A stretch of DNA of 64,000 nt from an uncultured Gammaproteobacteria bacterium. Lineage in GTDB: Bacteria > Patescibacteriota > Microgenomatia > Levybacterales > UBA12049. The stretch covers positions 1,692 through 65,691 of the forward strand of contig CAYQEJ010000001.1 of assembly GCA_964416505.1 (NCBI GenBank). Reading direction: 5' to 3'. Position 1 is the stretch's first letter. Each line of letters starts with the position of its first letter. The notes beneath the pieces are model-generated. The model was not told the DNA's origin and did no database searches. It worked only from the letters and a program-made list of their open reading frames with translations. This document shows, piece by piece, positions 458 to 55,635 of this stretch. Position numbers and translations under genes: made by a program.

Positions 458-486
458 AGCCTCGCAAGGCCTGGCCTTGCGAGGCT
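458..486. repeat. 29-bp perfect GC-rich palindrome AGCCTCGCAAGGCCTGGCCTTGCGAGGCT (copy 1)
   Basis: Exact inverted-repeat arms of 14 bp around a central T. Recurs six times in the window. Confidence 0.9.
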
Positions 487-528
487 ATTGATTCTCCTAG
501 CAAAATTGATTAAAATTTAGCGGTTAAT

Positions 529-942
529 ATGGGAAGAAGACATGTCGAAAATGGATTTTCACTACCGCATGGCCCGAATAATGGAGAACAAAGGCCTTTA
601 ACTCCCTTGCAAAGACTTTTAGCTTACCAATATGATATTGGACATAGAGAGGCTAGTGTTGGTTTGGGGCAAGGAGGATTCCATGGGACATCTGTGCGGG
701 CAGCAACTGCTTCTGAAGTTTCAACAGTGCTAAATGGAGGAAATCATCAGCCAATTGACTCCTCGCTTCCTAAAGCTTTCCGGCTAAGTCATGGAGATTA
801 TGCTAGAGCAGCCAAACAAAGATATGCTGTTCCAGATCAGCCACCGGTTCCTTTTGAAGCAGATTTCGCAGCTCAGAAAGCAGATAGAGAGAGAAGGAAG
901 CTTGCGGAAAGAGATCGCAAGAAGCAAAGAAGAACAGGCTAA
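529..942 (+). CDS. hypothetical protein with GC-richer, atypical composition, lying between palindrome copies 1 and 2
   Basis: Complete ORF of 137 aa, rich in R/P/G/A, unlike the K/I/N-rich backbone proteins. A TTGATT-17-TAAAAT promoter lies just upstream. Confidence 0.45.
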   Translation: MGRRHVENGFSLPHGPNNGEQRPLTPLQRLLAYQYDIGHREASVGLGQGGFHGTSVRAATASEVSTVLNGGNHQPIDSSLPKAFRLSHGDYARAAKQRYAVPDQPPVPFEADFAAQKADRERRKLAERDRKKQRRTG

Positions 943-955
943 TTAAAAAAAGATT

Positions 956-984
956 AGCCTCGCAAGGCCTGGCCTTGCGAGGCT
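956..984. repeat. 29-bp palindrome (copy 2)
   Basis: Identical to copy 1. Confidence 0.9.
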
Positions 985-1020
985 GGAACTTACTACGGAT
1001 TTCTGTTAAAATCCACGTTT

Positions 1021-1704
1021 ATGTTAGAGATTGGTTATTTTCCAGATGTAAGCTTTACGTCTTTACCTCCTAGGCCGGAGCCTGAGGTAAATAAAGATAG
1101 AGCAAATTTACTAAAAGCAGATACCAGTAGAAAATCAGATGTAGAATGTGAAGTTGTTCTCTCCAGATTCAAAGGCGTTTTACATAATATGAGCGCTGAA
1201 ATGGGAGTAGCACTACCTTTAGATGGACGAAACATTTATTTTTTACCTGAAGAAACATTTATGCAAGTGGTCGATCAAGGTAGCCTTAGAGGAAGATATA
1301 GCGAATACATAATTAATAGTATTGTAGGATATACGAGGAGATTTCCCGATGGAACTTTTGATACTTACATTTTAGGTTCTGGTGAAGGCAGGGTCCCAAA
1401 TGAAGATCAAGCGATAATAACTTTGGGACATGAATATGGTCATACTATTGGTCCTTTTCTCGGTCCCCTTGAGGAGGAAGTGAAAGCTTATGCATTTCAG
1501 GCAATGTTCCTAAAACATGCATTTAGAGGAAATCCGCATAATTTAGATCAGGGTTTGTATCCAACCAGAATTCACGATGTTGCCAAGAATAGAATCGCAC
1601 AGTTAAGATCGAGAGATTTTCCCATGGAAGCAGTGATTGCTCATTTAAATGGCCAAAATTTTGGAAATTACAGACCTGATAGTAACATGAGTCTTCCCCA
1701 TTAA
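1021..1704 (+). CDS. hypothetical protein with HExxH (HEYGH) zinc-metallopeptidase-like motif
   Basis: 'ITLGHEYGHTIG' motif. Intermediate GC. Starts 37 bp after palindrome copy 2, with a TAAAAT hexamer 8 nt before the ATG. Confidence 0.45.
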   Translation: MLEIGYFPDVSFTSLPPRPEPEVNKDRANLLKADTSRKSDVECEVVLSRFKGVLHNMSAEMGVALPLDGRNIYFLPEETFMQVVDQGSLRGRYSEYIINSIVGYTRRFPDGTFDTYILGSGEGRVPNEDQAIITLGHEYGHTIGPFLGPLEEEVKAYAFQAMFLKHAFRGNPHNLDQGLYPTRIHDVAKNRIAQLRSRDFPMEAVIAHLNGQNFGNYRPDSNMSLPH

Positions 1705-1721
1705 TTTGCTATACTAAATTT

Positions 1722-1946
1722 ATGTTTCTCTTGACTCTTCCCATGAAGATCTTTGGTTTGACGGGAACCATAGTGCTTGCTGTAATTTTGTATTGGCTTT
1801 TTATCGGAACTGGCATGAATATAGATAGAGGTAAAAACTGTACGGCTTTTATGGCTCAATCTGCTAAAAATCCGGTTTCAGGAAAAACTAAAATTTTCGG
1901 GTCTATGTGTGAGGTGCCTATTGGTTGGCAAAAAGTTACCAAGTAA
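1722..1946 (+). CDS. small hypothetical membrane protein
   Basis: 74-aa ORF with one hydrophobic segment. TGcTATACT sits 6 nt upstream of the ATG. Confidence 0.3.
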   Translation: MFLLTLPMKIFGLTGTIVLAVILYWLFIGTGMNIDRGKNCTAFMAQSAKNPVSGKTKIFGSMCEVPIGWQKVTK

Positions 1947-2519
1947 TTATTTTTTTTCTACAGAATCCAAAAGTAATACGCTAGCTTCTGTAAATGATCC
2001 CGCAATACCGTCATCAAGTTTTATGTCTGATCCTTCAAGATCAATTCCCATTACTCTTCCAAGCTCAACGTTATCCATGATTCTTACTTTTCCTTTAAGA
2101 TGTACATTTTCAAGTTCTCCGATTCCTAGCTCTTTGCCTTCGGTATCCTTAGGAAGTTCAAAATTTCTAGGTGCGACCACGATTAATTGTCTACCGCCTC
2201 CGAGTAAGCTTGTATTATTTCCAACTGTGAATACTCTTTTTGTAATCCAGTCAGTAACTTTTGAATCAACTTCAACAGTAAGACCGTCATAAACAAGTGG
2301 ATCACTCATGATATTTGCCACAGGAATGAGCGCTTTATTAGCTACGATTGGGGTTCTGGAATTGCTTTGTTTATTCGTATTTGATACAACAGGCTGAATT
2401 CGGCTTAAAATGAAAAGCACGATAAAAACGACTATAAATAGTACGACACCGATGGTTATAAGAATTTCTCTACGTCCCATAGTATTGCATATTATAGGGT
2501 ATTTTTTAAAAAAAATCAA
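1947..2519 (-). CDS. hypothetical membrane-anchored protein (start possibly at internal Met 2480)
   Basis: N-terminal TM helix followed by a soluble domain. No family recognised. Confidence 0.4.
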   Translation of the reverse strand: MIFFKKYPIICNTMGRREILITIGVVLFIVVFIVLFILSRIQPVVSNTNKQSNSRTPIVANKALIPVANIMSDPLVYDGLTVEVDSKVTDWITKRVFTVGNNTSLLGGGRQLIVVAPRNFELPKDTEGKELGIGELENVHLKGKVRIMDNVELGRVMGIDLEGSDIKLDDGIAGSFTEASVLLLDSVEKK

Positions 2520-2548
2520 GTCCCGGTAATAGATGGTATAATGATTTT

Positions 2549-3001: not shown

Positions 3002-3244
3002 ATGGGTATAATTTCTTGGATTATAGTTGGTCTTTTAGCAGGATGGATAGCCTCAATTATAATGAAGACAAATGAGGAGCAAGGTTTTATAAAAGACATT
3101 GTTTTTGGTGTAATCGGAGCATTTGTTGGAGGGTTTATAATGAATTTTCTGGGATATAGTGGAGTGACTGGACTTAACGTTTATAGCATAGGTGTGGCAA
3201 CTCTGGGAGCTGTTATAGTTATTTTTATCGGAAGAAGATTTTAA
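3002..3244 (+). CDS. GlsB/YeaQ/YmgE-family transglycosylase-associated membrane protein
   Basis: 80 aa with a G-rich double-TM pattern ('GIISWIIVGLLAGWIAS', 'GVIGAFVGGF'). SD AGGAGGTG upstream. Confidence 0.7.
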   Translation: MGIISWIIVGLLAGWIASIIMKTNEEQGFIKDIVFGVIGAFVGGFIMNFLGYSGVTGLNVYSIGVATLGAVIVIFIGRRF

Positions 3245-4500: not shown

Positions 4501-5010
4501 TTACCTTGGTCCATGAGGACCTCCATATTTCATAAATTTACCTCCCATGAGATAATTTATGTCTATTCCATTTTCTTTTGCCCAAGCTTCAAGATCAGTT
4601 TTTTCTTTTTCCATTTGAGTTTTCATCTCTTCTGGAGTTTTATTTTTAAAACTGTCTTTATTGGCTTCATGCTTTTCTTTTAGCTCTTTCTGCTTATTTA
4701 TTATTAGTGTTTTTTGAGCTTCTGTGATCTTGCTATCTTTGACTAATTGATTTAGTTTTTCTTCCTGCTTTTTTTGCATTTCAGCCTGCCTAGCTGATCT
4801 TTCTTCATCAAATACTTTTTGAACCTCATCCTTATTGAGTCCAAATTTATCTGCTATTTTCTGAACGATTGCATCATGTGGATTTGATGAATCTGCAGCG
4901 GAAGCGTTTGTAACTGTCAGGAGCCCTCCGGCGAGAACAGCAAGCGCCATTACTGGAAAAATTAGTTTTTTGTTTTTAATATTATTCACCTCCTTTCCAT
5001 GTTTTATCAT
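4501..5010 (-). CDS. secreted coiled-coil hypothetical protein
   Basis: Signal peptide 'LIFPVMALAVLAGGLLTVTNASA', followed by a K/E-rich heptad region. Confidence 0.45.
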   Translation of the reverse strand: MIKHGKEVNNIKNKKLIFPVMALAVLAGGLLTVTNASAADSSNPHDAIVQKIADKFGLNKDEVQKVFDEERSARQAEMQKKQEEKLNQLVKDSKITEAQKTLIINKQKELKEKHEANKDSFKNKTPEEMKTQMEKEKTDLEAWAKENGIDINYLMGGKFMKYGGPHGPR

Positions 5011-5070
5011 AAAACCATATTAGTAGGTTAATCTGAAAAATGGCTTATCATGCATATCCTATAATATTTT

Positions 5071-5099
5071 AGCCTCGCAAGGCCTGGCCTTGCGAGGCT
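5071..5099. repeat. 29-bp palindrome (copy 3)
   Basis: Identical to copy 1. Preceded by 'ATCCTATAATATTTT'. Its right arm TTGCGA sits 17 nt from TAGAAT and 6 nt before the ATG of the 5125 ORF. Confidence 0.9.
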
Positions 5100-5124
5100 A
5101 AATGGTTTTTGCTAGAATCTGCAC

Positions 5125-5460
5125 ATGGTAGAACATGAAGGACATCATGAGGAGGGACAAGACCCAAGATTTAGAGGTAGGTTTGCTGGAGCTGAAAGAT
5201 TGACTCCTCCTCAAATCGACGCACCCGTCAGCGGTAGCTCCTTTTATGGAAATCCAGTTTCAGAACTTCCACACCCAGCACTTCCTGATGTTTTTAGATT
5301 TAATTTAAGAGATATGAAAACATTAATAGCTTCATGGAATGTTCTTGGCGCTATGTCTATTTTATCGAATGCTCAAGCTAGTGGAGAAGTAAATATTCAA
5401 AGAGTAGTTGTAGTTGGAGCACTAGCTGTAGCATCGATTTTCGTAGCCTCTGATAGATAA
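5125..5460 (+). CDS. hypothetical protein, atypical composition (inside palindrome-bounded cassette)
   Basis: 111 aa; His/Glu-rich N-terminus and GC-richer codons. Confidence 0.35.
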   Translation: MVEHEGHHEEGQDPRFRGRFAGAERLTPPQIDAPVSGSSFYGNPVSELPHPALPDVFRFNLRDMKTLIASWNVLGAMSILSNAQASGEVNIQRVVVVGALAVASIFVASDR

Positions 5461-5462
5461 AT

Positions 5463-6134
5463 TTACTGGATATCTGTTTCAATTGAAACCACACCGTTTA
5501 TCGTAGCTCTTTGTACTATAGTTGAGTCCCCTTCTATACCTACTCTTTGAAAATATGGAAGATTAGGATCATTTACATAATCAGGAGTTAAGTTAGTTAT
5601 TTCTTCTGGTATTAGAAAATAATCATTCATTGCATGTAATAAAAAATCAGGCTGAAATGTATAGGAAAAAAGAATAGATTCTTGTTGAGGATTGGTAAGT
5701 TTTCCTTCTTCATTGAAGTTTAGAGATAAAGATGTCCGTAGTCTTCCCGGATTTAATTCAGCAGAATCTTCTACTATTAAAAAAACAGACCAGTCATTAG
5801 GCGTGCTTGCGGAAATTGGCTTTTGACCATATAAATATCTATGAACCGGAGCTTGATCTAGGGGAGCGCCTGGATCTTTAAAGAGGTCATGGGAGAAATA
5901 ATCTTGTGGCTTATCAATAAGTCTTTGTCTAAAAGTAGCCCAGAATTCAGGTTCCTGAGATTTGTCAACCAATTGATCTATAGCATCAACAAGAATTTGA
6001 TATTCAGGCCTTATGCTTTCTCCTTTTGAAGATTGTTCAGGGGAAGGATGAGGTTCATTAGCAGAAACAGCAACTGGAACTCCAAGCATCGTGAATGCTA
6101 TACCTAGAGCAGCTGATCTTTCTTTCCAGCCCAC
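5463..6134 (-). CDS. secreted hypothetical protein, atypical composition (inside palindrome-bounded cassette)
   Basis: Sec-type signal 'AALGIAFTMLGVPVAVSANEP'. Convergent with the 5125 ORF. Confidence 0.4.
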   Translation of the reverse strand: MGWKERSAALGIAFTMLGVPVAVSANEPHPSPEQSSKGESIRPEYQILVDAIDQLVDKSQEPEFWATFRQRLIDKPQDYFSHDLFKDPGAPLDQAPVHRYLYGQKPISASTPNDWSVFLIVEDSAELNPGRLRTSLSLNFNEEGKLTNPQQESILFSYTFQPDFLLHAMNDYFLIPEEITNLTPDYVNDPNLPYFQRVGIEGDSTIVQRATINGVVSIETDIQ

Positions 6135-6196
6135 GGTAAGATTATATTTAATAATTGATATCTGTCAAGCGTGAATAATGGATCTTATAGTTCGCT

Positions 6197-6225
6197 AGCC
6201 TTGCAAGGCCAGGCCTTGCGAGGCT
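6197..6225. repeat. 29-bp palindrome (copy 4, 2-nt variant AGCCTTGCAAGGCCAGGCCTTGCGAGGCT)
   Basis: Same element with TCG->TTG and CCTGG->CCAGG. Confidence 0.85.
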
Positions 6226-6238
6226 AAGAATATAGGTC

Positions 6239-7267
6239 TTAGCCTTTTAGAGGAAAACTAACTATGAATTTGGATCCTTCTTCCAGTTTACTTTCTACTG
6301 AGATTGAGCCATTGTGGAGGTCGGTAATTTTTTTTGCAATCGAAAGGCCAAGTCCATATCCTTTTTCATTTCTTGATTTGTCACTTCTGTAAAATCTATC
6401 AAAAATATGTGGTAAATCCTTTTCTGAAATACCAATCCCTTGATCTATTATTTGAATCTGTGCTCTTCCCTTTTCCGTGTCTGAATTAATTTTTATGGTT
6501 TGGCCGTTTTTTGAATACTTTATAGCATTGTCAATTAAGATTACAAATAATTCGGTTAATCTGTCACTTACTCCAATTATTTTTGTATTCTTAATATTTT
6601 TTTCCAATTTAATATTTTTTTTCTTTGCAAAAATTTCTGTTTTTTTAATTGCTATTTCTAGTATTTCTTTTATAGATATTTCTTTTAAGTTATTTTTATT
6701 AACTAATTTTCCATTCTGGGCTAGCTCTAGAAGATTATTGGATAATGTTTGAAGTCCAATAGTTTCTTCGAGATTACTTTTTAATACGCTTTTTGATTGT
6801 TTTAAAGACAGATTTTTATTTCTTAAAGCTACTTCTATTTCTGTTCTTAGAGTTGCAATGGGAGTTCTAAGTTCGTGTGAGGAATCAGAAATAAATCTCT
6901 TTTGCTCATCCATCATTTCTTTTATGGGTTTTAATGTTCTCCCAGCCAAGAAATATCCTGAAATTCCTGCAATTGCTAGAATTGATAGATTAATAAAACC
7001 AAGCATTATTAGGAATCTTTCTCGGGCCTTTTGGATTGTATCGGAGTCATCTTGTGTAAAAATAATAAAATCTTTTCTATGATTTTCATTAGGTGGAAGC
7101 ATGAATAACTTTTTTTGATAATCTTTACTTATTCTATCTTCCATTCTTTCAAATCTATCAAATTCCATATTTGCACTTTGATAAATTACCAAGCTAAAAA
7201 GCAGGCTGATAGACATTATTATTACTAAGTACCAAGCAGTTAATTTAATTCTAGCTTTCTCAAACAT
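6239..7267 (-). CDS. sensor histidine kinase
   Basis: Two N-terminal TM segments, an H-box 'SHELRTPIATL', and a G-box 'GYGLGLSIAKKITDLHNGSISVES'. Confidence 0.85.
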   Translation of the reverse strand: MFEKARIKLTAWYLVIIMSISLLFSLVIYQSANMEFDRFERMEDRISKDYQKKLFMLPPNENHRKDFIIFTQDDSDTIQKARERFLIMLGFINLSILAIAGISGYFLAGRTLKPIKEMMDEQKRFISDSSHELRTPIATLRTEIEVALRNKNLSLKQSKSVLKSNLEETIGLQTLSNNLLELAQNGKLVNKNNLKEISIKEILEIAIKKTEIFAKKKNIKLEKNIKNTKIIGVSDRLTELFVILIDNAIKYSKNGQTIKINSDTEKGRAQIQIIDQGIGISEKDLPHIFDRFYRSDKSRNEKGYGLGLSIAKKITDLHNGSISVESKLEEGSKFIVSFPLKG

Positions 7268-7268
7268 A

Positions 7269-7928
7269 CTATGATTCTATTTTATATCCGAATCCCCTTA
7301 TTGTTTTAATGATTTCGGATTCATTCAATTTATCTCTCAAATGTTTTATGTATACTTCTACTGAATTAGGTAAAACATTACTTTCATAGTTCCAGACATG
7401 TGCGATGATCTGTTCTTTTTTGATTGTTTGATTCGGATGCCTCATGAGATATTCCAAAAGTGAAAATTCTTTATTTGATAGGTCAATTATTTTTCCTTTT
7501 TTTCTAACCTCAAAACTTACTGGATTTAGCTCTATATCTCTTATCTTCAGGACTGATCCGTTTGAATTTTTAGGTCTACGGGTTAAGGCGCGAATTCTAG
7601 CTAAAAGTTCGGTGAAGGCAAAAGGCTTAATCAGGTAATCATCTGCTCCGCTATCAAGACCTGTTATTTTATCTTCGATTTCACCTTTTGCTGTTAGGAA
7701 AAGAACGGGGGTGTGATTTTGTTTTTCTCTTATTTTTTTAAGGGTTTCAATTCCGTCAATTTTAGGAAGCATTCGGTCTAAAATTATAGCGTCGTATTCT
7801 TCTCCAAGGGCAAGATCTAAGCCCTCCTCCCCGTCATAAGCCACATCCACTGCGTATTTTTCTTGGGTTAAGCCTTGTTTTAGAGAGTTTGCAATTTTAT
7901 GTTCATCTTCTATTACAAGTATTCTCAT
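7269..7928 (-). CDS. OmpR-family response regulator
   Basis: Receiver 'MRILVIEDE...DAIILDRMLPKIDG' plus a winged-helix C-terminus. Adjacent to the kinase with a 1-nt gap. Confidence 0.9.
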   Translation of the reverse strand: MRILVIEDEHKIANSLKQGLTQEKYAVDVAYDGEEGLDLALGEEYDAIILDRMLPKIDGIETLKKIREKQNHTPVLFLTAKGEIEDKITGLDSGADDYLIKPFAFTELLARIRALTRRPKNSNGSVLKIRDIELNPVSFEVRKKGKIIDLSNKEFSLLEYLMRHPNQTIKKEQIIAHVWNYESNVLPNSVEVYIKHLRDKLNESEIIKTIRGFGYKIES

Positions 7929-7990
7929 GAGGCTAGATTATATCACTTTTCTGAAATTTCCCTGAAAATTTTATTTGATACAATATAAAT

Positions 7991-8449
7991 ATGTCAGATA
8001 TAGGTCCAGAATCAAGAAGTCGCGATTTATCTACAGTTACTATGCCGGAAGTTCCAGATCCCCAGAGGCTTACTTATGGCCAGTTTAAGAAAATGGATAT
8101 GTCGGAAGTTCAGCCTGGAGCAATCATAGGAGAGATAAGTCCCTCGAAATTATTTGCTAGTCAAACTTGGGTGGATTCGCAAAAGTTAGTTACTGCTTCA
8201 AATGCTGAAATGGGAGAAAGCCTGGATGTCCCAGTTTGGATTGGTGAGATTCCTATTAAAGACAGGCCAGGTCAATTTCAGAGAATAGTCGTATTGGGTG
8301 ATATGCATCATAGGACATTGAAAGCATGGCAGTTAGGATTAAAGGTAAATGGACATGTTATGGGAGTATTGCCAAAAGGACAAAGAGTAATTCCTTTTTC
8401 TACATTTAGAGTTAAGACAGGTGATCCTTTCGCTGGAATGCCCGAATAG
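7991..8449 (+). CDS. hypothetical protein, atypical composition
   Basis: 152 aa, no family recognised. TACAAT 6 nt before the ATG. Confidence 0.4.
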   Translation: MSDIGPESRSRDLSTVTMPEVPDPQRLTYGQFKKMDMSEVQPGAIIGEISPSKLFASQTWVDSQKLVTASNAEMGESLDVPVWIGEIPIKDRPGQFQRIVVLGDMHHRTLKAWQLGLKVNGHVMGVLPKGQRVIPFSTFRVKTGDPFAGMPE

Positions 8450-9616
8450 TTATTTCCTAACAAATAAAATTGCGTTTGGTATTGCTCGACCTGGACCTAC
8501 TCTATATCCTCCACTCCAAAGCGCAGTTGAGCCTCCACTATCTAGGTTAAGAGCATTTTGGATTCCCATGATTTGTAATACTCGAGCCATTTGCGCCGCA
8601 TTTACATTATGAACCACTCCTATGTATGCAGTTGACCCGCTTGATCCTACAAAGCTTCTTGATCCAGCTCCGGCTCTTTTAACCTCATCATCTCCTCCAA
8701 AAACTACTTGTCCAGCGGAAACCAAAAGAGGTTGATTTGCTAAAACAGAATCGATCCCAGTGTCTCTTCCCCATTGCGAACTAGCTCCGACAAATCTTGC
8801 AGAATTTCCTGAGAAAATTACAGCCGGAACATTTGAATAAATATTATTATCAGAATTAAAATATTTTTTATTTTTATTCATAAGAAGCGTATCAAATGAA
8901 TTTGTTTTTCCTGCGCAGGATGGGTATGATGCGGGACAGAAATATGATCCGTTTACACCGGCATAAGCTCCGCTTCTCCCTACATAATCTCCTAGATTTA
9001 GAACTGGACAATTGTCTTTGCAGTCTTCATCAGACGCAGTATCCACAATTACCCGTGTTGAATTTAGATCCGCTGCCACGATATCAACAACAAACTCTCC
9101 AAAATCAGTTTTAACTTTTTGCCTCGAATAGCCCGATCCTGGAGCGGTGTTGTTAACTACTACATTTGTAGTGTTTCCTACGGTATTTGAAGGCGCTGAT
9201 TTAGCAATGTCAGAATCAATTTTTGAATTTAACTTAGTTAAATCCGCTGAAGCAGATGAATAATTTCGATTAGATAATAGGCTCAAAATGCCTGCTAACG
9301 ATTTGTCATAATCAGACGTATTCTTTTTTTGATCCCTTAAGTCAACAACTTTTTCATAAGTCTTAATGGCGTCTTTATAAGTTTTTTCAATATTTTTAAT
9401 ATTTACTTCAAGAGTTTGATTTTTCTTGTATTGGTCTTCAGATTTAATTTTATTTAACTCTGAAACAGTTCTAATATTTAAATTTTTTTGGTTTTGTAAA
9501 TTCTTATATAAGACTGCGACCGAAATCACTGAAAGAGTCAGAAGCGCTATGGGAATTAGTATTAGTTTATTTGCGATTAAAGATTTAGGAAGATTTATAT
9601 TTAATTTTCCTGTCAT
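8450..9616 (-). CDS. phosphodiester glycosidase (NAGPA/DUF2233)-family protein, membrane-anchored
   Basis: N-terminal TM. 'NGSYF' and 'ALNLDSGGSTALW' resemble the NAGPA core 'NGGFF' and 'NLDGGGS'. Confidence 0.5.
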   Translation of the reverse strand: MTGKLNINLPKSLIANKLILIPIALLTLSVISVAVLYKNLQNQKNLNIRTVSELNKIKSEDQYKKNQTLEVNIKNIEKTYKDAIKTYEKVVDLRDQKKNTSDYDKSLAGILSLLSNRNYSSASADLTKLNSKIDSDIAKSAPSNTVGNTTNVVVNNTAPGSGYSRQKVKTDFGEFVVDIVAADLNSTRVIVDTASDEDCKDNCPVLNLGDYVGRSGAYAGVNGSYFCPASYPSCAGKTNSFDTLLMNKNKKYFNSDNNIYSNVPAVIFSGNSARFVGASSQWGRDTGIDSVLANQPLLVSAGQVVFGGDDEVKRAGAGSRSFVGSSGSTAYIGVVHNVNAAQMARVLQIMGIQNALNLDSGGSTALWSGGYRVGPGRAIPNAILFVRK

Positions 9617-9942
9617 TTCTTTTTATGAGAATCTTCAATATCTTTATGGAGCTCTTTTTTCAAATCATCTGCAGTTTTTTTAATTTTATCTTCAATGTGA
9701 TCCACCCTTTCAGTTAAAAGTTTCCAGATTTTTTCTTGATCATCTTCTGCTAGGAGTACTAAGAATTCCTGTTTGTCTTTTTCAGAAAGTTCCGATAAAA
9801 CTGAGTCTAGAATGGCATGATGAAGATTCTCTTGAGCAAGCTCAATGAGGTGTTTTCTTTCTTCTTGAGTAAGTTCCATCTCGGCCAGTGCAAGACTTAT
9901 TGATGAAGTTTCTACTACATGTGAATAAAAATGTGATTTCAT
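9613..9942 (-). CDS. hypothetical acidic helical protein
   Basis: 109 aa, E/K-rich. Confidence 0.35.
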   Translation of the reverse strand: MKSHFYSHVVETSSISLALAEMELTQEERKHLIELAQENLHHAILDSVLSELSEKDKQEFLVLLAEDDQEKIWKLLTERVDHIEDKIKKTADDLKKELHKDIEDSHKKK

Positions 9943-9948
9943 ATTAGT

Positions 9949-10857
9949 TTATTGTAACGTTTCTATGGGTCCTAAGGGAATAACATCATTTGGATCATCT
10001 AGAAAAAAATAAAGAACAGGTCCCCGCGCTGAACCATCTACTCTTTCAAGGTAGTTCATTACTTCTGGAGAACCACCAAGATGTTTTCCTGTCCATTCAG
10101 CTGGTCCTGCATCTCCGATCACTGCTACAACTGCTTTACCGTTTTGCGGATTTACGACTAGCATTTTTCTAAATTTAAAAAAATCTCTATATTCGGCAAC
10201 TCTAGAATTAAAATCCGGAGCAAGAAATGTTTGAACAGCTATATAATACTTTTCTCTTTCTGTGTCTTCTTCAGTCAAATTTGCCCGAGAAGTTGCAAAA
10301 TATCCCCACGCGCCCAGACCTGGTGCCATTCCCGAAGAATAATATTTCGAAGCTTCATCTTGATTTCCGTCGAAATGCGAACTCATATTGTCTCCGGGAT
10401 ATCTTGCTAAGTGCTGTTCTGCGCCAATCAGTCCATAACTTCTGTTGAGCCTAAGCCCATTTATTTCGGGTTTTACAGTTACGCCAAAGGTTTTCGAAAG
10501 AGTTGCGCTAATAGAAGCCTCTTCGTCTCCGGTTAAAGGTCTTACTAAATCTGGGAGTTCTTTGGAAAGATTCGACATAAGAAATACTCTATTGTTGATT
10601 TTTTGAGCTTCCTGGCTTGCGACAACTGCGCCTCCTGCGCTATCTTTTTTAATTGGAGAAGTTAGAAGGATAAGACTTCCTAACGAGCCTACTGCTAATT
10701 GCTTGGAATTATCCGCAAGCCATTTAAATGAGTCTTTATGTTTTTTAGCAATTCCTTCTGTGAGATCTCTGTGTCTGCTGGTCCATTTATCTTTAAGAAA
10801 TTGATAGTTGGGAGATTGCATATAAAAATTGTAGCAAAAAAGTGAACCTGCAAGCAA
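9949..10857 (-). CDS. RlpA-like double-psi beta-barrel domain protein (putative cell-wall binding/lytic)
   Basis: C-terminal 'MLVVNPQNGKAVVAVIGDAGPAE...GSPEV' matches the RlpA/expansin DPBB pattern. N-terminal hydrophobic segment. Confidence 0.4.
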   Translation of the reverse strand: MLAGSLFCYNFYMQSPNYQFLKDKWTSRHRDLTEGIAKKHKDSFKWLADNSKQLAVGSLGSLILLTSPIKKDSAGGAVVASQEAQKINNRVFLMSNLSKELPDLVRPLTGDEEASISATLSKTFGVTVKPEINGLRLNRSYGLIGAEQHLARYPGDNMSSHFDGNQDEASKYYSSGMAPGLGAWGYFATSRANLTEEDTEREKYYIAVQTFLAPDFNSRVAEYRDFFKFRKMLVVNPQNGKAVVAVIGDAGPAEWTGKHLGGSPEVMNYLERVDGSARGPVLYFFLDDPNDVIPLGPIETLQ

Positions 10858-33440: not shown

Positions 33441-33483
33441 TTTTGCAAAGACGAGTAGGCGTTTGAATGAAGTTCCGATTGGC
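33441..33483. repeat. 43-bp direct repeat A: displaced copy of the sortase 3' coding end (5 mismatches)
   Basis: The reverse complement encodes PIGTSFKRLLVFAK, matching the sortase C-terminus PIGTSFKRLLIFAKPV encoded at 34333..34375. Confidence 0.8.
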
Positions 33484-33594: not shown

Positions 33595-33632
33595 TCCTAT
33601 AGTTTGACATTTTTAGCCTCGATTGATATACT
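33595..33632 (+). promoter_or_regulatory. TCCTATAG-box consensus promoter of the cassette gene
   Basis: tcctatagtTTGACA-17nt-TATACT-11nt-ATG (33644). Confidence 0.55.
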
Positions 33633-33643
33633 TTCGGACTATT

Positions 33644-34321
33644 ATGACAAGAAAAGAAGTTTTGTCTGGAGAATCCGTTGTTGAAGGACGAGAATCAGTA
33701 CCAGATGATAGACTAATTGCCTTATGGCAAAAGTTAAATTACGGGTCTCATATAGCTGGTGAAGTTGCAAATAGAAATTTATTTACCCATGCGTTTAGGC
33801 ATTCAGGATATAGTATAGAGGGAAAAAAAGTATCAATATCTTTTGGATATAAACGACCTGGAGTCATTTATAGATTACTAGACACTTATGGATATAAATA
33901 TACTCTCAAACCAGGAGTTGTTCTTGATGCAAGACAGACTGCTGCTTTTTACCAAGGAGTTGCTGGAATAAGCATTATAGAGCAAGTAGATGAATTATCG
34001 GAGCGAAGACTAGATTTAGCTGTTAGAAGAGATGGGCAGATCATAGAATCTGCTGTCGCTGAATCTACGCATGGGTTAAGTACTCAGGGCGTAGGCTTGG
34101 TAACATCTCTATGGCAAGAAAATGATTATTATAGAGACTTGTTAGATGGAGATTGCGAAGGTAGGATAGATGCGCAAACTCATGCTTTTGTAGCAAGACG
34201 AGGTATTACGTTAAGTGAAATAGAGCCTGCGGAAAGATATTTAGGTGCGATTGTTGGATATCTCCAAGGTTTACGCCGTGGTCCTCAACCATTTTTTCCA
34301 GTATCCCCTTCTGTTAAATAA
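33644..34321 (+). CDS. hypothetical protein (cassette passenger), atypical composition
   Basis: The ORF-track start at 33623 is a TTG that overlaps the -10; the first ATG is at 33644 (MTRKEVLSGES...). No family recognised. Confidence 0.45.
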   Translation: MTRKEVLSGESVVEGRESVPDDRLIALWQKLNYGSHIAGEVANRNLFTHAFRHSGYSIEGKKVSISFGYKRPGVIYRLLDTYGYKYTLKPGVVLDARQTAAFYQGVAGISIIEQVDELSERRLDLAVRRDGQIIESAVAESTHGLSTQGVGLVTSLWQENDYYRDLLDGDCEGRIDAQTHAFVARRGITLSEIEPAERYLGAIVGYLQGLRRGPQPFFPVSPSVK

Positions 34322-36024: not shown

Positions 36025-36071
36025 AACTATATTTAGGCAGGAATTTACTAAATCCGAGGCAGAGGATTTAA

Positions 36072-38246
36072 TTAGACAGATTTAACTTTAATATATAATT
36101 TTCGACTTATTATAAATATTGCTAAAACAGGTAGTGCTAAGATAGCCCATGCTAAATTGACTGTTGGTTTTCCTGAATCATTTATTCCTTTTGTAAGTGA
36201 TCCCATTATTTTTGCTGTGTTTGCTCCTGCAACTTTTATATCTACATTTGGAGTAAATCCGTTTGAAGTAAATGTTGCAACTCCACCATTTGATCCACCC
36301 ACTGCTGCCACAGTTGTTGATTTAGTTGTATTTGTGCTTTCTGTTGATGAGTTATTGTTGCTAGAGTTATTTGATCCGGTTCCGCCCTGAGCGAGCACTT
36401 CATTGTTTTCTTTATGTTCTTTTGAGCTTCCTGGAGTAATAAAGTCTCCAATCCAGCTTCCAAAAACATTTACAACAGTTACTACTAATTTTCCATTTCC
36501 TACAATATTGTTGTTTACGAAATTCACTAAGTTAGCTACGATATTTGCATCTCCAGTTGTAATATTTGAATTTCCTCCTGTGTTGTAGTTAGTGGTGTTG
36601 TTTCCTGTGTTTGCTGACAAATTGAGAGTGTTATTTATGTCTGCAGTATTTGTTTGAGTGGTCGTATTATTAACTGTAGTTGATCCGTTAGCTACGTTGG
36701 TAGAATCTGCTCCATTTCCTGAATTTGTTGCAGTTATGCTTCCGGTTACAGGATTTATTAAGAATTGGAATAGTGGAGAACCAGCGAAGTTATTTCCATC
36801 TTGAGATCCAAACAATTTTCCAACCCAGTTTCCTGCTTCGTTCACTATTACTAACCACATGGTTCCTCCCATAAGATTCATGTTTGCAATATTTAAGATG
36901 TTTGCATCAATGTTTGAAGATCCGGTAGATATATTGTTGTCTCCACCAGTATTGAATTTGGAATCATTGTTTCCTGTATTTGCATCAAGTACTAATGTGT
37001 TTGTGATGTTGGCATCATTTGATTGGAATGTGTTGTTGTTAATAGTCGAATCAGAATTTGTTGTATTGCTCGATCCTGCTCCGTTTCCTGTATTTGAAAG
37101 CATTGTTGTGTCTCCACAGCTTCCTCCACAGATTGCATCCATCATTTCTTGGGTTAATATAATGTCTCCGACTAAATTTCCAAAAATATTTACTACGCCG
37201 TAAATTACGTTGCCCGCGATATTGTTGTTGGCAAATGTAACTGCATTTGCTGAAACATTTGCGTCACCAGTAGTGATGTTTGAGTCTCCACCTGTATTAA
37301 AGCTTGCTCCGTTGTTTCCGCTATTTGATGCAAGATTTAAGTTATTCCCTACAGTTGCGCTGTTGGTTTGATTTGTGTTGTTGTTTACTGTTGAGTCATT
37401 GGTTGCTTCATTGTAGGAGAATGCTCCATTTGCATCATTTTCTAAAGCTAGGCTTTGTCCACATCCTGCGATGCATCCTGCGTTGAAGTCCAAGATTATG
37501 TCTCCTTGATGGTCGTCTACTATATTGAACTCAGCTACAGCTACTCCATCCACGTTTGTATTTACAGATGTAACTACTGTTCCAGTTGTATTTGCGTCGC
37601 CTGTTGTTATTGAAGAATTCCCTACGTTAAATGAAGAATCATTATTTCCTGTAACGGTTGAGGAATTCATATTGTTGGATACGTTTGCGCTATTTCCCTG
37701 ATTTGTATTATTGTTTGTTGTTGATGAAGAATCGCCAATATTTGTTGAACCTGCACCATTTTCTGAATTAGAAATTGAAGTGCTTCCTCCACCACAGCAT
37801 CCGCTTGATGAAGTATTATTATTTCCGGTCGTTATTATTGATGAAGAATTGCTTCCATCCCCTGTGTTTATAGATGTATCTCCAACATTTCCATTTGAAG
37901 AGGTTCCTGTTCCTGATGAAGTAGGAGTTTGAGTTGTATCTGTTGTATTTGATGAAGCTGCTGGTGTAGGAGCTGGTTTTTCTTTTGGTTTATAGTTATC
38001 TGGATTCCAGGTTGGAGCTGTTGGTGCAGTAGGTGCAGTTGGCGCTGTAGGAGCCGTAGGAGCACTTGGTGCAGTTGGCGCTGTAGGAGCAACCGGTTCT
38101 TGTGGAGCAGTAGGTTCAGGAGTAGGTTGTACGGATGATGTATCGGCTGGAGTGGATTCTTCTGCAAGAACTGCAAAAGATGTACCCATTCTTCCGAAGA
38201 GCATAATTCCTATTAATAATATTGCGATTGATTTTTTAATTTTCAT
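36072..38246 (-). CDS. large secreted Asn/Thr/Gly-rich repeat protein with Pro-rich (TAP)n linker and C-terminal TM anchor (family member 3)
   Basis: Signal peptide; 'APTAPTAPSAPTAPTAPTAPTAPTAPT'; about 8 repeat modules with CC/CG Cys pairs; C-terminus 'LAWAILALPVLAIFIISRK'. Confidence 0.6.
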   Translation of the reverse strand: MKIKKSIAILLIGIMLFGRMGTSFAVLAEESTPADTSSVQPTPEPTAPQEPVAPTAPTAPSAPTAPTAPTAPTAPTAPTWNPDNYKPKEKPAPTPAASSNTTDTTQTPTSSGTGTSSNGNVGDTSINTGDGSNSSSIITTGNNNTSSSGCCGGGSTSISNSENGAGSTNIGDSSSTTNNNTNQGNSANVSNNMNSSTVTGNNDSSFNVGNSSITTGDANTTGTVVTSVNTNVDGVAVAEFNIVDDHQGDIILDFNAGCIAGCGQSLALENDANGAFSYNEATNDSTVNNNTNQTNSATVGNNLNLASNSGNNGASFNTGGDSNITTGDANVSANAVTFANNNIAGNVIYGVVNIFGNLVGDIILTQEMMDAICGGSCGDTTMLSNTGNGAGSSNTTNSDSTINNNTFQSNDANITNTLVLDANTGNNDSKFNTGGDNNISTGSSNIDANILNIANMNLMGGTMWLVIVNEAGNWVGKLFGSQDGNNFAGSPLFQFLINPVTGSITATNSGNGADSTNVANGSTTVNNTTTQTNTADINNTLNLSANTGNNTTNYNTGGNSNITTGDANIVANLVNFVNNNIVGNGKLVVTVVNVFGSWIGDFITPGSSKEHKENNEVLAQGGTGSNNSSNNNSSTESTNTTKSTTVAAVGGSNGGVATFTSNGFTPNVDIKVAGANTAKIMGSLTKGINDSGKPTVNLAWAILALPVLAIFIISRKLYIKVKSV

Positions 38247-38351
38247 TTTTTTTATTTTTAGTTTTAATTTTAATTTTTTCCTTATTTAGTTTATGTTTGG
38301 TGGCAGGGGTTCTTGTTGAAGTGCTAACAAGAGCGCCCCTACCGCCTTACA

Positions 38352-39617
38352 TTAGAATGACATTCCGAAGAAAGCCATCATTGCTGCGAAATTGAAAGAA
38401 AAATCAACTTCTGGCATTGTTGGCCATTCCCATGTTGGCATGTCACCAACGACGTTAACGTTGCCTGAGTTCGAAACTCCTGAATTTACAGTAGCATCTC
38501 CTGTCACGATGGAAGGATCTGTTTCTGGTGTTCCAGTGTTTGAATCAGCACCGTTATAGCCGGTTTTTGCGTTTAAATCACCGAGATCATTGTAAAGACC
38601 TGCATTATTTCCTTGTCCAACAGCTTGAACGCTATCGAGATTTAAAGTAATAATGTTGTCTGCATGATTGTGGTGTTTGTAGTGATGTGATGATGCATCA
38701 GCTCCGTTTCCAGAGATTTTTGCAGTAACATCCCATACACATCCGCAGTCAACATCTGCAAAGTTGAAGTTAACTGAATTGTCAACGTCAGCATTTACAG
38801 TTGCATTTCCAGTGTCGATCATTACATCTCCACCTGTGTTGAAGTTTGCATCGTTTCCACCTGTCTTTGCGTCTGCATCGACGTCGTTAGAAACGCTTGC
38901 ATTGTTCGACTGGCCTACTGTTGTAGTTTTAGCTAAGTCAGCGGTAATATAATTATCGCTTCCTGCGCCGTTACCAGAAATGATGAAGGATGCTGATGGA
39001 TTTGATCCACCATGATTCGAGCTAACTCTTGCGGAGTTAACGTTTGCTACAGTTGAAACGCTAACGTTTGATTTAGCATTTCCAGTGACGATTGAAACAT
39101 CTCCACCTGTATTCTTATAAGCATCGTTACCACCTGTTTTTGCGTTAGCATCAACATTGTTGTTAACATTTGCGTTATTAGATTGATTTACTGCTGTAAC
39201 TGTTCCCTGATTTAACTGGACACCATTGTCAGAATAAGCTCCGTTTCCAGAGATATTAACTGTGGTATTTCCAGATTGGCAACAATTAACTTCAGCTTGG
39301 TTAGAGTTGAGAACGTTAGTCACTGTTGTATTTGTTGTAGCATTACCTGTAGAAATAGTTGTATTTCCACCGGTATTGAAATTTGCATTATTTCCGCCTG
39401 TTGAAGCGTTTGAAGTAACGTTATTGTTAACGCTAGCTGTATTGTTCTGATTTACAACTGTTGTAGTGTTTTGTGAAACATTAGCCCAATTATCAGATCC
39501 TGCTCCATTGCCGGAAATTTCGATTGTTGTACCTGCGAAAGCTACTGGTGCGAAACCATTAGCTAATATTGCTACGGTTGCAATTGCTGTACCTAATCTT
39601 TTTTTGTAATCTGTCAT
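38352..39617 (-). CDS. secreted Asn/Thr/Gly-rich repeat protein (family member 4)
   Basis: Signal peptide. About 5 modules '[I]SGNGA.SDN...NTGGN.AN.NTGG...I.TGNA' with Cys pairs 'NCCQ' and 'DCGC'. SD GGGGGTG. Confidence 0.6.
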   Translation of the reverse strand: MTDYKKRLGTAIATVAILANGFAPVAFAGTTIEISGNGAGSDNWANVSQNTTTVVNQNNTASVNNNVTSNASTGGNNANFNTGGNTTISTGNATTNTTVTNVLNSNQAEVNCCQSGNTTVNISGNGAYSDNGVQLNQGTVTAVNQSNNANVNNNVDANAKTGGNDAYKNTGGDVSIVTGNAKSNVSVSTVANVNSARVSSNHGGSNPSASFIISGNGAGSDNYITADLAKTTTVGQSNNASVSNDVDADAKTGGNDANFNTGGDVMIDTGNATVNADVDNSVNFNFADVDCGCVWDVTAKISGNGADASSHHYKHHNHADNIITLNLDSVQAVGQGNNAGLYNDLGDLNAKTGYNGADSNTGTPETDPSIVTGDATVNSGVSNSGNVNVVGDMPTWEWPTMPEVDFSFNFAAMMAFFGMSF

Positions 39618-53789: not shown

Positions 53790-53844
53790 AAGATACTAGA
53801 ATAGCTCATTTATTTAAAATTGACAATATCTTATAATGCAAAGC

Positions 53845-54144
53845 ATGTTAGAAGCTGATGAAGTAAGAGATCCATTTAAATGTGCAGCTGTTCCGGATAT
53901 TGCAGTTGATCCTATTGATGGGCCAGGTGCGGAAGTAGGAATTTCTATAGTTTGTCTTCTTATTGAAGAGTGCGGTGCAAATCTCGAATTATCCACTACG
54001 GTTGTAGCTGAAGAAATAGAAACTCAGTTATCTTTTATAAGACATCAGTTGGCTCGTGAAGTTCCAAGAGTTTGTCTTGCTAATAAAGCCGCTCAGGAAG
54101 CAGGAGTATTGGAGAAATTTACTCCTCCCCCAGGGCTTTCCTAG
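53845..54144 (+). CDS. hypothetical protein, atypical composition
   Basis: The ORF-track ATG at 53836 lies inside the TATAAT hexamer; the second ATG at 53845 is more likely. TTTATT-17-TATAAT. Confidence 0.35.
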   Translation: MLEADEVRDPFKCAAVPDIAVDPIDGPGAEVGISIVCLLIEECGANLELSTTVVAEEIETQLSFIRHQLAREVPRVCLANKAAQEAGVLEKFTPPPGLS

Positions 54145-54348
54145 TATTGGTCTGGTTTGTTCTACTTTGTCTTATTGATCAGTTGATTAAATAGGTTTAT
54201 CATAGCTTTTACCCTTAATACGTAAGTATTAAATGGCAGGAACCTTTCGCAAGATAGGTACCCCGAAAGAACCCCAGCAATGGGGTTTTTTTGCGGCCGT
54301 TAATTCCTATATCCATTCCTTGGATGTCCTCTCCTATCCTATAACATT

Positions 54349-54377
54349 AGCCTCGCAAGGCCTGGCCTTGAGAGGCT
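54349..54377. repeat. 29-bp palindrome (copy 5, 1-nt variant ...CTTGAGAGGCT)
   Basis: Preceded by 'TCCTATCCTATAACATT'. Confidence 0.85.
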
Positions 54378-54413
54378 AGGTGAATTCAAACTTATCTTAT
54401 ATACCAAATACTA

Positions 54414-54452
54414 TCCTATAGTTTGACTTTTAGCTTCGTTTTTTGATAAAAT
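54414..54452 (+). promoter_or_regulatory. TCCTATAG-box promoter of the 54458 gene
   Basis: tcctatagtTTGACT-16nt-GATAAA-7nt-ATG. Confidence 0.5.
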
Positions 54453-54457
54453 AGCTT

Positions 54458-55594
54458 ATGCAAAATAGAGAAAAATCTCCAGCTCGAGTAAATCCAAGAG
54501 AAAATATGGTAAGTCTGCCTTTAGTGCCTTCGGAAAGACGAAGTCGGTTATCAAGTAGAAGAAATTTTTTTGCGGCATCAACACTAGGTCTAGCTGCATT
54601 AGGGGCTGTTTCTGGACAATTGTACTCAGATAATGCTCTTTTAATTCCTGAAATTGGACTGGAGCTACTTATGGATCAGGATTGTACAGTAATTCCTGAA
54701 TCTGCGAAAGAAAAAGTTATTTTAAATTTTGAATCTCCAAATAATCCACGTATGGATAGAATCTTAAAGCGTGCTGAGAGAGCAATTGATAGAGGAAATG
54801 AAGCAGGAATCCAAAGAGCTATAGGGCAAATTGAAGGATTCAGGATAGATATGGCGGAAAATTATGGACTGACTTTGCATGATCCTTCTCTAGCGCTTGA
54901 AGCAATTGATTCCGCAGATTCGTCAAGCGTTGTTTTTTCTGAGCTTCAGGGATATATGGAAGGTTTTGGAATAGCGCTTACAACAGAAAGAGATTTTATA
55001 AAAGATATGGCAGTTATAGGAGAAGCTTTAGATTTGGATAGTCTTCCTCCTGAAATATTTAGAATAGCTTCTAAAAATTTAATAACAATTTTTTCAAGAT
55101 TACCCGAAGAGCTAGTAAGTTTAGCCGACGTTAGAAGAATAGTTTTATGGAGTAGTATTTTTAACAATGAAAAAGTTGGAGGAACAAATAAATTTAATAA
55201 CACCATGCATCTTCCTGTCAGCATATTGATAGATCCTGAGGAGGGATCAAATACAGTCAATCATGAATTGGGGCACTCAATAGATAATGCTATTTGCGGA
55301 AGAATAGGAGCAACTAGAGATGCTGAGTATAGTGACTTAAATTCAGCGGAAACAACTTATGGAGCGCATAATTCATCGACAGATTTTATGTACTCATATG
55401 GAGGAGTTAGCGTTGAAGAGGATAAAGCAACTGTGTATGAATTTATGCTGGATTTGATTAGGAATCCACATGATTTAAGTCCAGTAGTACAAGAAAAACA
55501 GAAACTTCTTCTCGCAAGACTTGAAGCAAATATTCCAGTTATTTCTGACTATTTAAGAGCTGTAAGCAATTTTAGCTCAGAAGGAAATTCTTAG
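54458..55594 (+). CDS. Tat-signal secreted protein with HExxH (HELGH) zinc-metallopeptidase-like motif, atypical composition
   Basis: 'SSRRNFFAASTLGLAALGAVSG' is a twin-arginine signal. 'TVNHELGHSIDN'. Flanked by palindrome copies 5 and 6. Confidence 0.5.
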   Translation: MQNREKSPARVNPRENMVSLPLVPSERRSRLSSRRNFFAASTLGLAALGAVSGQLYSDNALLIPEIGLELLMDQDCTVIPESAKEKVILNFESPNNPRMDRILKRAERAIDRGNEAGIQRAIGQIEGFRIDMAENYGLTLHDPSLALEAIDSADSSSVVFSELQGYMEGFGIALTTERDFIKDMAVIGEALDLDSLPPEIFRIASKNLITIFSRLPEELVSLADVRRIVLWSSIFNNEKVGGTNKFNNTMHLPVSILIDPEEGSNTVNHELGHSIDNAICGRIGATRDAEYSDLNSAETTYGAHNSSTDFMYSYGGVSVEEDKATVYEFMLDLIRNPHDLSPVVQEKQKLLLARLEANIPVISDYLRAVSNFSSEGNS

Positions 55595-55606
55595 GCCTAT
55601 AACGCT

Positions 55607-55635
55607 AGCCTTGCAAGGCCTGGCCTTGCGAGGCT
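55607..55635. repeat. 29-bp palindrome (copy 6, variant AGCCTTGCAAGG...)
   Basis: Preceded by 'GCCTATAACGCT'. Confidence 0.85.

Follow-up and report, generated by a model that had tools for sequence, protein, structure and literature searches.

What are the six copies of a GC-rich palindrome that recur between the genes of a 64-kb stretch of bacterial DNA (contig CAYQEJ010000001.1 of assembly GCA_964416505.1; the whole stretch is referred to here as the window)? The first-pass annotation saw in them the borders of three passenger-gene cassettes, and gave as a lead REP-like hairpins or the hairpin ends of IS200/IS605-type elements. Our analysis indicates that the six palindromes probably constitute the repetitive extragenic palindromic (REP) family of a system that pairs such repeats with a REP-associated tyrosine transposase (RAYT), here in a Patescibacteria (Microgenomates-like) lineage in which the repeat is a perfect palindrome, carries no GTAG and does not form doublets.

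A search of the 64-kb window for the pattern AGCCTCGCAAGGCC-N-GGCCTTGCGAGGCT, with up to three mismatches allowed, returned six matches (at 458, 956, 5071, 6197, 54349 and 55607), whereas none of 100 shuffled sequences contained one. All six palindromes reported earlier were thereby recovered, with none expected by chance; three are perfect over 29 bp and three carry one mismatch, and searches of the window for half-sites and degenerate copies yielded nothing beyond these six. The putative REP copies are as follows:

458..486, no strand assigned: copy 1, a perfect 29-bp palindrome, 31 bp with its T/A flanks (457-487)
956..984, no strand assigned: copy 2, a perfect palindrome
5071..5099, plus strand: copy 3, perfect, forming a 35-bp palindrome at 5068-5102
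6197..6225, minus strand: copy 4, one mismatch (a T-G wobble); strand taken from the CCTATAT box at 6230-6236
54349..54377, plus strand: copy 5, one mismatch
55607..55635, plus strand: copy 6, one mismatch (a T-G wobble)

When the six copies are aligned with their flanks, conservation common to all is limited to the palindrome and a preceding T; as a rule the palindrome extends to 31 bp (T...A), and at copy 3 to 35 bp. Copies 5 and 6 have a 56-nt unit in common (88% identity) that copy 1 matches in reverse, and copy 4 resembles copy 6 in reverse in its flanks. The unit at copy 1 is probably minus-oriented, its left flank being complementary to the right flank of copy 5. As far as the flanks allow, the unit orientations in the pairs formed by copies 1 and 2, 3 and 4, and 5 and 6 are -/-, +/- and +/+. 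Folding prediction turns each copy into a hairpin with a stem of 13-16 bp and a loop of 3 nt, with energies of -23 to -29 kcal/mol as RNA (z -4 to -7; for copy 1, -27.9 kcal/mol and z -7.0) and of -19.7 kcal/mol as DNA (z -8.0).

All six window copies are intergenic. Copy 1 lies 26 nt after the stop of the open reading frame (ORF) 112..432 and 43 nt before the ATG at 529; copy 2 follows the stop of 529..942 by 14 nt and precedes the ATG at 1021 by 37 nt, the spacing that had been reported for the HExxH gene 1021..1704. Copy 3 occupies a divergent intergenic region between 4501..5010(-) and 5125..5460(+), and copy 4 is separated by 13 nt from the stop of the histidine-kinase gene 6239..7267(-) that precedes it and is upstream of the 5463..6134(-) promoter. 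Copy 5 follows ORF 53836..54144 by 205 nt and precedes the ATG at 54458 by 81 nt, and for copy 6 the distances are 13 nt from the preceding stop (of 54458..55594) and 63 nt to the following ATG (at 55698). Four of the six copies are 13-26 nt past a stop codon, and every copy (6/6) is 26-81 nt upstream of some start codon. The gaps within the pairs measure 469, 1097 and 1229 nt, in agreement with the 0.47-1.23 kb given by the first-pass annotation, and the grouping into three pairs is non-random: by random-placement simulation, three pairs no more than 1.3 kb apart among 47 intergenic regions have P ~3.5e-4. Rfam scans, judged by gathering score and E-value, gave no match at the window palindromes, and none of the tRNA genes of the window adjoins one.

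We scanned one genome per species for the exact pattern, with a separate scan of metagenomes for further contigs, and found the palindrome in 30 stretches from eight species-level metagenome-assembled genomes (MAGs) and 14 metagenome contigs. The eight MAGs comprise a Candidatus Woykebacteria, one 'Patescibacteria group' and six that are titled 'uncultured Gammaproteobacteria', with a GC content of 34-47%; the GC content of these six is closer to that of Patescibacteria. Each related MAG assembly holds 1-14 exact copies. Across loci the flanking genes are arranged ++ in 8 cases, -- in 6, divergently (-+) in 6 and convergently (+-) in 4, and the genes that neighbour the copies are functionally unrelated (RecG, HhH-GPD, EamA, APH, MurT-like).

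When all ORFs of the palindrome loci were clustered and the families checked for contact with a palindrome, one family was found always to abut one. It encodes a protein of 216-236 aa with the motifs YYHxYNRG, LMPNHFHF and YIHKQA. In five MAGs the palindrome stands on both sides of this gene (loci L007, L010, L016, L024 and L028); on several metagenome contigs the gene is flanked by one copy or a variant (an upstream variant in L032, a downstream copy in L031); and in L049, L051, L052 and L053 (of which L051 and L052 are Levybacteria) it stands between lineage-specific variants, of which the downstream one in L051 is degenerate. A repeat-flanked Y1/HUH gene, which is the REPtron layout, is present in at least eight related genomes or contigs. 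The protein matches Pfam Y1_Tnp (PF01797) with an E-value of 6.8e-12 and 46 bits, against a cut-off of 23, and its only NCBIfam match is REP_Tyr_transpos, the REP-associated tyrosine transposase. H95-F-H97 and Y155 (in YIHKQA) are invariant in the family. A Foldseek search with an AlphaFold2 model (pLDDT 70) returned the TnpA proteins of IS608, ISDra2 and IS200 and also 4ER8, the E. coli RAYT with its REP hairpin, which gave the lowest root-mean-square deviation (4.6 A). The first-pass annotation had proposed looking for a RAYT or an IS200 TnpA, and a single Y1/HUH gene flanked on both sides by the identical palindrome is what the relatives hold; its lead towards REP-like or IS200/IS605-type hairpins was borne out through this association.

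The fetched loci contain a single RAYT copy for each genome. The gene adjoins a Peptidase_M50 gene in L010, L024, L051 and L052, lies one gene away from it in L053 and about 3 kb away in L028. The single copy and the Peptidase_M50 neighbourhood suggest a vertically inherited, domesticated RAYT rather than an active insertion sequence (IS). The RAYT-like family is large, with at least 7,992 matches at E<=1e-5 and 686 clusters at 50% identity at E<=1e-30, and its members in Levybacteria, Woykebacteria and Patescibacteria are named just 'transposase' or 'hypothetical'. The MAGs CAZBFH, CAZMGC and CAYILI have the RAYT and Peptidase_M50 neighbourhood in common with Levybacteria.

Repeat and enzyme vary together between lineages. 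In CAYILI all copies, including those that flank its RAYT gene, read TTCC...GGAA instead of TCGC...GCGA; TTCC/GGAA variants also flank the RAYT gene of Levybacteria, the Woykebacteria palindrome reads TTGC...GCAA, and the L049 variant AAGGT-GAG-ACCTT flanks the RAYT gene of that locus. Over 31 distinct palindromes, 4 of the 13 stem pairs carry double changes and pairing holds in 95.5% of cells, a level reached by 0 of 500 shuffles and by no slid register. Symmetry alone would fit a hairpin or the binding site of a dimer alike, and we favour the hairpin because the associated enzyme class acts on single-stranded hairpins.

About eight copies in relatives lie in-frame within genes, where they add ~10 residues (SLARPGLARL or LAFQGLALEG) and leave the ORF unbroken. 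The host genes, named by eye, encode a MurT-like ligase (in three species, at the same site), a P-type-ATPase-like protein, a DHFR-like protein and the RAYT itself:

L002:6751, L011:3200, L013:4347 and L036:923: in-frame copies in the MurT-like gene
L012:3690, L003:1882 and L023:1361: in-frame copies in other genes
L028:4912, L032, L031, L051:10482 and L053:10486: in-frame copies in the RAYT gene

At the MurT-like site the insert tracks the REP variant of each genome, reading SLARPGLARL in two species and SLPRPGLGRL in CAYILI, a pattern that could reflect either repeated insertion at one site or concerted replacement.

The first-pass annotation described the genes between the paired palindromes as foreign in composition. 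The ORFs that it listed (529..942, 5125..5460, 5463..6134, 54458..55594 and, outside copy 2, 1021..1704) all exist, and both HExxH motifs and the SRRNFF twin-arginine motif are present as described. (We considered kinship between the two HExxH proteins and rejected it, their similarity being confined to the motif region, E 0.09.) Foreign composition did not hold up. Across 74 window ORFs the mean GC content is 0.359 +/- 0.038 and the mean GC content at third codon positions (GC3) is 0.239 +/- 0.044, and the enclosed ORFs have GC3 z-scores from -0.97 to +0.49 relative to this set. Only ORF 529..942 is raised in total GC (0.454, z 2.5), with a normal GC3; its high GC is an amino-acid effect of a Gly/Ala/Arg/Pro-rich protein and not a sign of foreign DNA. 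With codon-level GC native throughout and no GC3 anomaly in any enclosed ORF, we rejected the reading of these intervals as foreign islands. A search of 5.8 billion proteins gives 2-3 homologues for the enclosed genes (three for the 378-aa HExxH protein encoded by 54458..55594), which are ORFans and carry their own promoters.

Comparison with relatives bears on each pair in turn. For copies 5 and 6, relatives of 90% identity (L045 and L046) have both palindromes in place, and the copy 6 orthologue in both shows a compensatory C>T/G>A double change. In L047, a relative of 49% identity, the 378-aa HExxH gene occupies the same locus with no palindrome upstream or downstream: the ~120-nt segment that holds copy 5 in the window is missing, and the two sequences share an upstream hairpin and T-run (34 nt, 94% identical) and a CCTATAGTTTGAC...TAAAAT promoter. 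For copies 1 and 2, there is one 48% homologue of the 137-aa protein encoded by 529..942, which has no palindrome on either side and stands in different surroundings (L054, L055). For copies 3 and 4, the MAG CAZMGC (L018) is syntenic with window 5069-10557 at 74-86% DNA identity, and its orthologue of 5125..5460 retains copy 3, the 26-nt distance and the TTGCGA-17-TAGAAT geometry unchanged. Window 5463-7928 (2.46 kb) corresponds in L018 to 76 nt (3118-3194), and this indel takes in the 223-aa ORF, copy 4, the histidine kinase and a response regulator, overrunning the supposed end of the cassette. The synteny of L018 with the window also stops at copy 3.

In none of L018, L045, L046, L047, L054 and L055 did we see presence, absence or relocation of a whole interval between genomes, and no second genomic location of any 'cassette' was found. 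A comparison of left and right ends showed the identical symmetric palindrome at both, with no fixed relative orientation, and the inconsistent unit orientations leave the pairs unfit to be the defined left and right ends of a transposon. We conclude that the enclosed genes are resident, lineage-specific ORFans and that the palindromes arrived in their intergenic spacers; that the genes are resident and not cargo follows from the homologues without palindromes, the half-kept pair of copies 3 and 4 and the inconsistent unit orientations. The claim that the palindromes bracket three passenger-gene cassettes was therefore abandoned, on the strength of native GC3, palindrome-free homologues, the overrunning indel and the mixed orientations.

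Two sites show breaks at a palindrome. Near-identical sequences diverge downstream of it in L046:1306-1363 compared with window 55636 onwards, and upstream of it in L029:720 onwards compared with L028:5135 onwards; these breaks may be rearrangements at REPs or assembly joins or breaks at a 31-nt repeat. L045 begins inside a palindrome. A 49-kb inversion between copies 4 and 6, which L046 had suggested, was dropped when the match beyond the palindrome proved to be only 11 nt.

By analogy with TnpA-REP of E. coli and the TnpA of IS200/IS605 elements, we propose that a single-stranded copy would fold into a GC-rich hairpin of 13-16 bp with a 3-nt loop, and that this hairpin would be recognised by a single-copy, vertically inherited HUH/Y1 transposase whose gene itself lies between two repeats and which, for the genome under study, may be encoded outside the window. 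The RAYT would cut and rejoin DNA beside the hairpin, so that copies are seeded and maintained; most would land between a stop codon and the next promoter, and in relatives some in-frame within genes. Once settled, the hairpins may be passive or mildly useful features of transcripts: four copies stand 13-26 nt past a stop codon, where hairpins of -23 to -29 kcal/mol could protect 3' ends, and copy 3 appears to have been co-opted as a -35 element.

Several observations weigh against a REP/RAYT system. Canonical REPs have a 5' GT[AG]G or CGTC tag that these repeats lack; the palindromes are perfect, the copies are singletons rather than REPIN doublets, and their number is low (1-14 exact copies per MAG assembly). 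The tight pairing (P ~3.5e-4) is outside what the model of REPs and RAYTs itself accounts for. The score of the protein against REP_Tyr_transpos falls under the equivalog cut-off (38 vs 80 bits), the Foldseek E-values are weak (~1e-3), and a search of PDB sequences with a profile of the RAYT alignment gave no match at E<=1. In the 64-kb window tblastn and a six-frame profile search for a RAYT gene returned only noise, and the link rests on relatives, the closest syntenic one of which, CAZMGC, has ~74-78% DNA identity.

What other explanations could account for the palindromes? Were the pairs the hairpin ends of a non-autonomous IS200/IS605-like element with passengers mobilised in trans, the non-random pairing (P ~3.5e-4) would be accommodated, as would the palindrome-gene-palindrome layout of the RAYT gene and of a 301-aa gene in L027, the scarcity of homologues of the enclosed genes (2-3 among 5.8 billion proteins) and the sequence breaks right after a palindrome in L046 relative to the window and in L029 relative to L028. 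We nonetheless regard such REP-bounded mobile cassettes as very unlikely, given that the GC3 of the enclosed ORFs is native, that the L047 HExxH gene stands palindrome-free at the same locus behind the same terminator and promoter, that the 137-aa homologue is palindrome-free in L054 and L055, and that L018 keeps 5125..5460 and copy 3 while the 223-aa gene and copy 4 are gone in the 2.46-kb indel that overruns copy 4. Moreover, unit orientations within pairs are inconsistent, no second genomic location was found, and the breakpoints in Logan contigs may be assembly joins at the 31-nt repeat. An integron was rejected on architecture: genes bracketed by palindromic sites that would act as single-stranded hairpins recall attC cassettes, but there is no contiguous cassette array, the palindromes are short, perfect and not asymmetric like attC, the enclosed genes have promoters of their own, and the relatives' enzyme is of the HUH/Y1 class and not an IntI-type tyrosine recombinase.

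A different possibility is that the palindromes are host transcript hairpins, that is, terminators or stabilisers of 3' (or 5') ends selected at gene boundaries, with the link to a transposase incidental. The position of four of the six copies 13-26 nt past stop codons, the very stable RNA hairpins and the retention of orthologous copies at divergence levels of 90% and ~75%, with compensatory changes, would fit, and two copies pass a loose terminator pattern. These are copies 1 and 3 only, on the plus strand, and copy 3 has no upstream plus-strand gene; the terminator scan reported none at copies 5 and 6. The earlier statement that the palindromes have no downstream U tract stands for most copies. 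As the primary explanation, transcript hairpins are highly improbable: the T-run is missing at most copies, copy 3 is in a divergent promoter region, copy 5 lies behind a terminator-like hairpin and T-run at ~54255-54295 (recognised by eye only and unflagged by the terminator scan), copies occur within coding sequences in relatives, near-identical sequence at unrelated loci and across species is unexpected of independent terminators, and the two-sided flanking of the RAYT gene would be left over to explain. A function in transcripts can coexist with a REP/RAYT system as a secondary role. Scarcely credible, finally, is that the palindromes are operators, double-stranded sites of a dimeric transcription factor that controls a regulon of downstream genes. 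Every window copy does have a start codon 26-81 nt downstream of it, a -35 touches or overlaps copies 1 and 3, and symmetric covariation would also be expected of a co-evolving dimeric binder; yet copies in relatives occur between convergent genes (e.g. L020) and inside ORFs, the neighbouring genes (RecG, HhH-GPD, EamA, APH, MurT-like) share nothing, and a perfect palindrome of 29-31 bp with an unconstrained centre base would be unusually long for an operator. We rejected an operator or regulon on the contexts of the copies and the unrelated functions of their neighbours.

If the palindromes are REPs, as we favour, how do they compare with known systems? To our knowledge, the characterised REP/RAYT systems come almost exclusively from Proteobacteria and a small number of other phyla, and it is the TnpA-REP proteins of E. 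coli, Pseudomonas and Stenotrophomonas that reportedly figure in the studies of Nunvar 2010, Bertels and Rainey 2011, and Ton-Hoang 2012. As in those systems, a short GC-rich palindrome is dispersed mostly in intergenic DNA, one Y1/HUH gene in relatives has that repeat on either side, repeat and enzyme change together from lineage to lineage, the transposase neighbourhood is conserved in a way that suggests vertical descent, and 4ER8 is among the fold matches, with the lowest root-mean-square deviation. Unlike known REPs, the palindrome here is perfect, with a stem of 13-16 bp, where known REPs are imperfect; its foot is T-AGCC (111 of 128 flanks) and not GTAG or CGTC; a CCTATAR box stands on one side of 14-17 of 64 copies at a fixed distance of 3 nt; and copies are few, singletons 0.5-1.2 kb apart that form neither REPIN doublets nor bacterial interspersed mosaic elements. 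The protein is longer (~220 aa) and below the NCBIfam cut-off for RAYTs. Both the REPtron layout and co-evolution between tnpA-REP and its cognate REPs have been described (PMC6006769, PMC5581495), and untagged, atypical REP structures are known in subclass 2.6 (PMC6006769). Genes for tnpA-REP are reported to favour larger genomes (PMC6006769), whereas the host here is a small-genome candidate-phyla bacterium. On GC content, the synteny of CAZMGC with the window and the RAYT neighbourhood, the title 'uncultured Gammaproteobacteria' looks like a placeholder.

With IS200/IS605 elements and palindrome-associated transposable elements the repeats have in common the HUH/Y1 TnpA fold of the relatives' enzyme and, by analogy, hairpin ends that would be recognised in single-stranded form; in some of the copies the hairpin also has, on its 5' side, a short conserved motif reminiscent of the target or guide sequence of IS200/IS605. 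They differ in that the same symmetric palindrome stands on both sides of the transposase gene, with no distinct ends, that the gene is apparently single-copy and syntenic, with no tnpB, and that dispersed copies are solo hairpins of 29-56 nt and not paired left and right ends. Rickettsia palindromic elements are 100-150 bp long, and we know of no dedicated transposase for them. The palindrome of the relatives resembles them in lying in-frame in housekeeping genes, to which it adds ~10 residues; unlike them, it has no intragenic copy in this window.

The one-sided box mentioned above had been described as a CCTATAR heptamer preceding four of the six copies. This is right for three copies on the plus strand, but the box at the copy beginning at 6197 is CCTATAT and lies on the other side and strand:

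5058..5064, plus strand: CCTATAA box beside copy 3
54338..54344, plus strand: CCTATAA box upstream of copy 5, 3 nt from its T-AGCC foot
55596..55602, plus strand: CCTATAA box 3 nt before the foot of copy 6, directly after the stop TAG at 55592-55594
6230..6236, minus strand: CCTATAT box upstream of copy 4 on that strand, 3 nt from its foot and 2 nt past the kinase stop

In a set of 64 non-redundant copies, CTATA[AGT] occurs on exactly one side in 17 and on both sides in none, and in 14 of those 17 it keeps a constant offset of 3 nt ahead of the T-AGCC foot (the CCTATAAC-NNT flank). CCTATAR is not significantly enriched across the window (24 occurrences vs 17 +/- 4 expected), and we rejected it as a general enriched motif; its enrichment is tied to the fixed offset from the palindrome and to the promoter-like context CCTATAGTTTGAC. 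In the latter the same heptamer directly precedes a -35, at window 33596-33608 and 54415-54427 and at two L047 sites, with a variant, CCTATAGTTTGG, in L054 upstream of 6970. The TTGAC of CCTATAGTTTGAC is the -35 in the window and L047 sites (e.g. TTGACA-17-TATACT at 33603-33631), and CCTATAGTTTGAC looks like a lineage-specific promoter-proximal motif. The CCTATAR box itself may be part of a longer, asymmetric REP unit or a preferred insertion target, in which case its counterparts would be the GTAG of E. coli REPs and the short target or guide sequences that IS200/IS605 elements use.

The first-pass annotation also assigned to the right arm of copy 3 a TTGCGA -35 for the gene downstream, and a promoter was indeed found there, with a geometry that is conserved in L018. 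A second promoter belongs to the other gene between copies 3 and 4:

5090..5118, plus strand: promoter-like TTGCGA-17-TAGAAT, with a TG before the -10 and the -35 in the right arm of copy 3
6141..6168, minus strand: TTGACA-16-TATAAT promoter for 5463..6134(-), 12/12 matches, between copy 4 and the gene

The -10 of the first ends 6 nt before the ATG at 5125, so the mRNA of 5125..5460 is probably leaderless. The -10 boxes of 5463..6134, 5125..5460 and 1021..1704 (the last with its -10 at ~1006-1012(+)) end 6-8 nt before the starts, a spacing that suggests leaderless mRNAs for all three.

Could the REP copies also serve as exchange points? We consider it unlikely, but conceivable, that they are points of RAYT-dependent exchange and that copies at orthologous sites are overwritten by the current master sequence, giving gene-content turnover and concerted evolution. 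Exchange points would account for the tight pairing around fast-evolving ORFans, the breaks at palindromes (L018, L046, L029) and the 2.46-kb indel, and overwriting is proposed because the MurT-like insert is SLPRPGLGRL in the species with TTCC/GGAA REPs, RAYT flanks included. If both were true, REPs and RAYTs would actively drive both the turnover of gene content and concerted evolution among candidate-phyla bacteria.

In the literature searched we found no description of REP/RAYT systems in candidate-phyla bacteria, and with good confidence we regard the present case as such a system in a new lineage with atypical repeats. It would tie a large RAYT-like family to a specific, atypical REP in small-genome Patescibacteria, and recognising it avoids mis-annotation of the repeats as cassette boundaries, terminators or operators. 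It also flags the repeats as a cause of contig breaks and possible mis-joins in metagenome assemblies, and offers, in a perfect 13-bp stem with a 3-nt loop, a compact REP substrate for the question of how a RAYT may recognise its repeat without a GTAG guide.

Further features of the window were noted. The hairpin and T-run accccgaaagaaccccagcaatggggttttttt (window 54255-54295, L047:9-42) is 94% identical between the two sequences, the neighbouring protein only 49%, and the element may be either a conserved terminator or a small-RNA 3' end; against Rfam it gave nothing but noise at E<=1. A second repeat, of 43 nt, occurs at 33441-33483 and 34333-34375 with 91% identity (TTTTGCAAAGAC/TTAGGAGGCGTTTGAATGAAGTTCCGAT), each copy after a plus-strand gene and the two together bracketing ORF 33623..34321. 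Window 34918-39617(-) holds a cluster of large paralogues that probably encode repetitive surface proteins and whose internal repeats include a 9-nt tandem array at 38011-38109.

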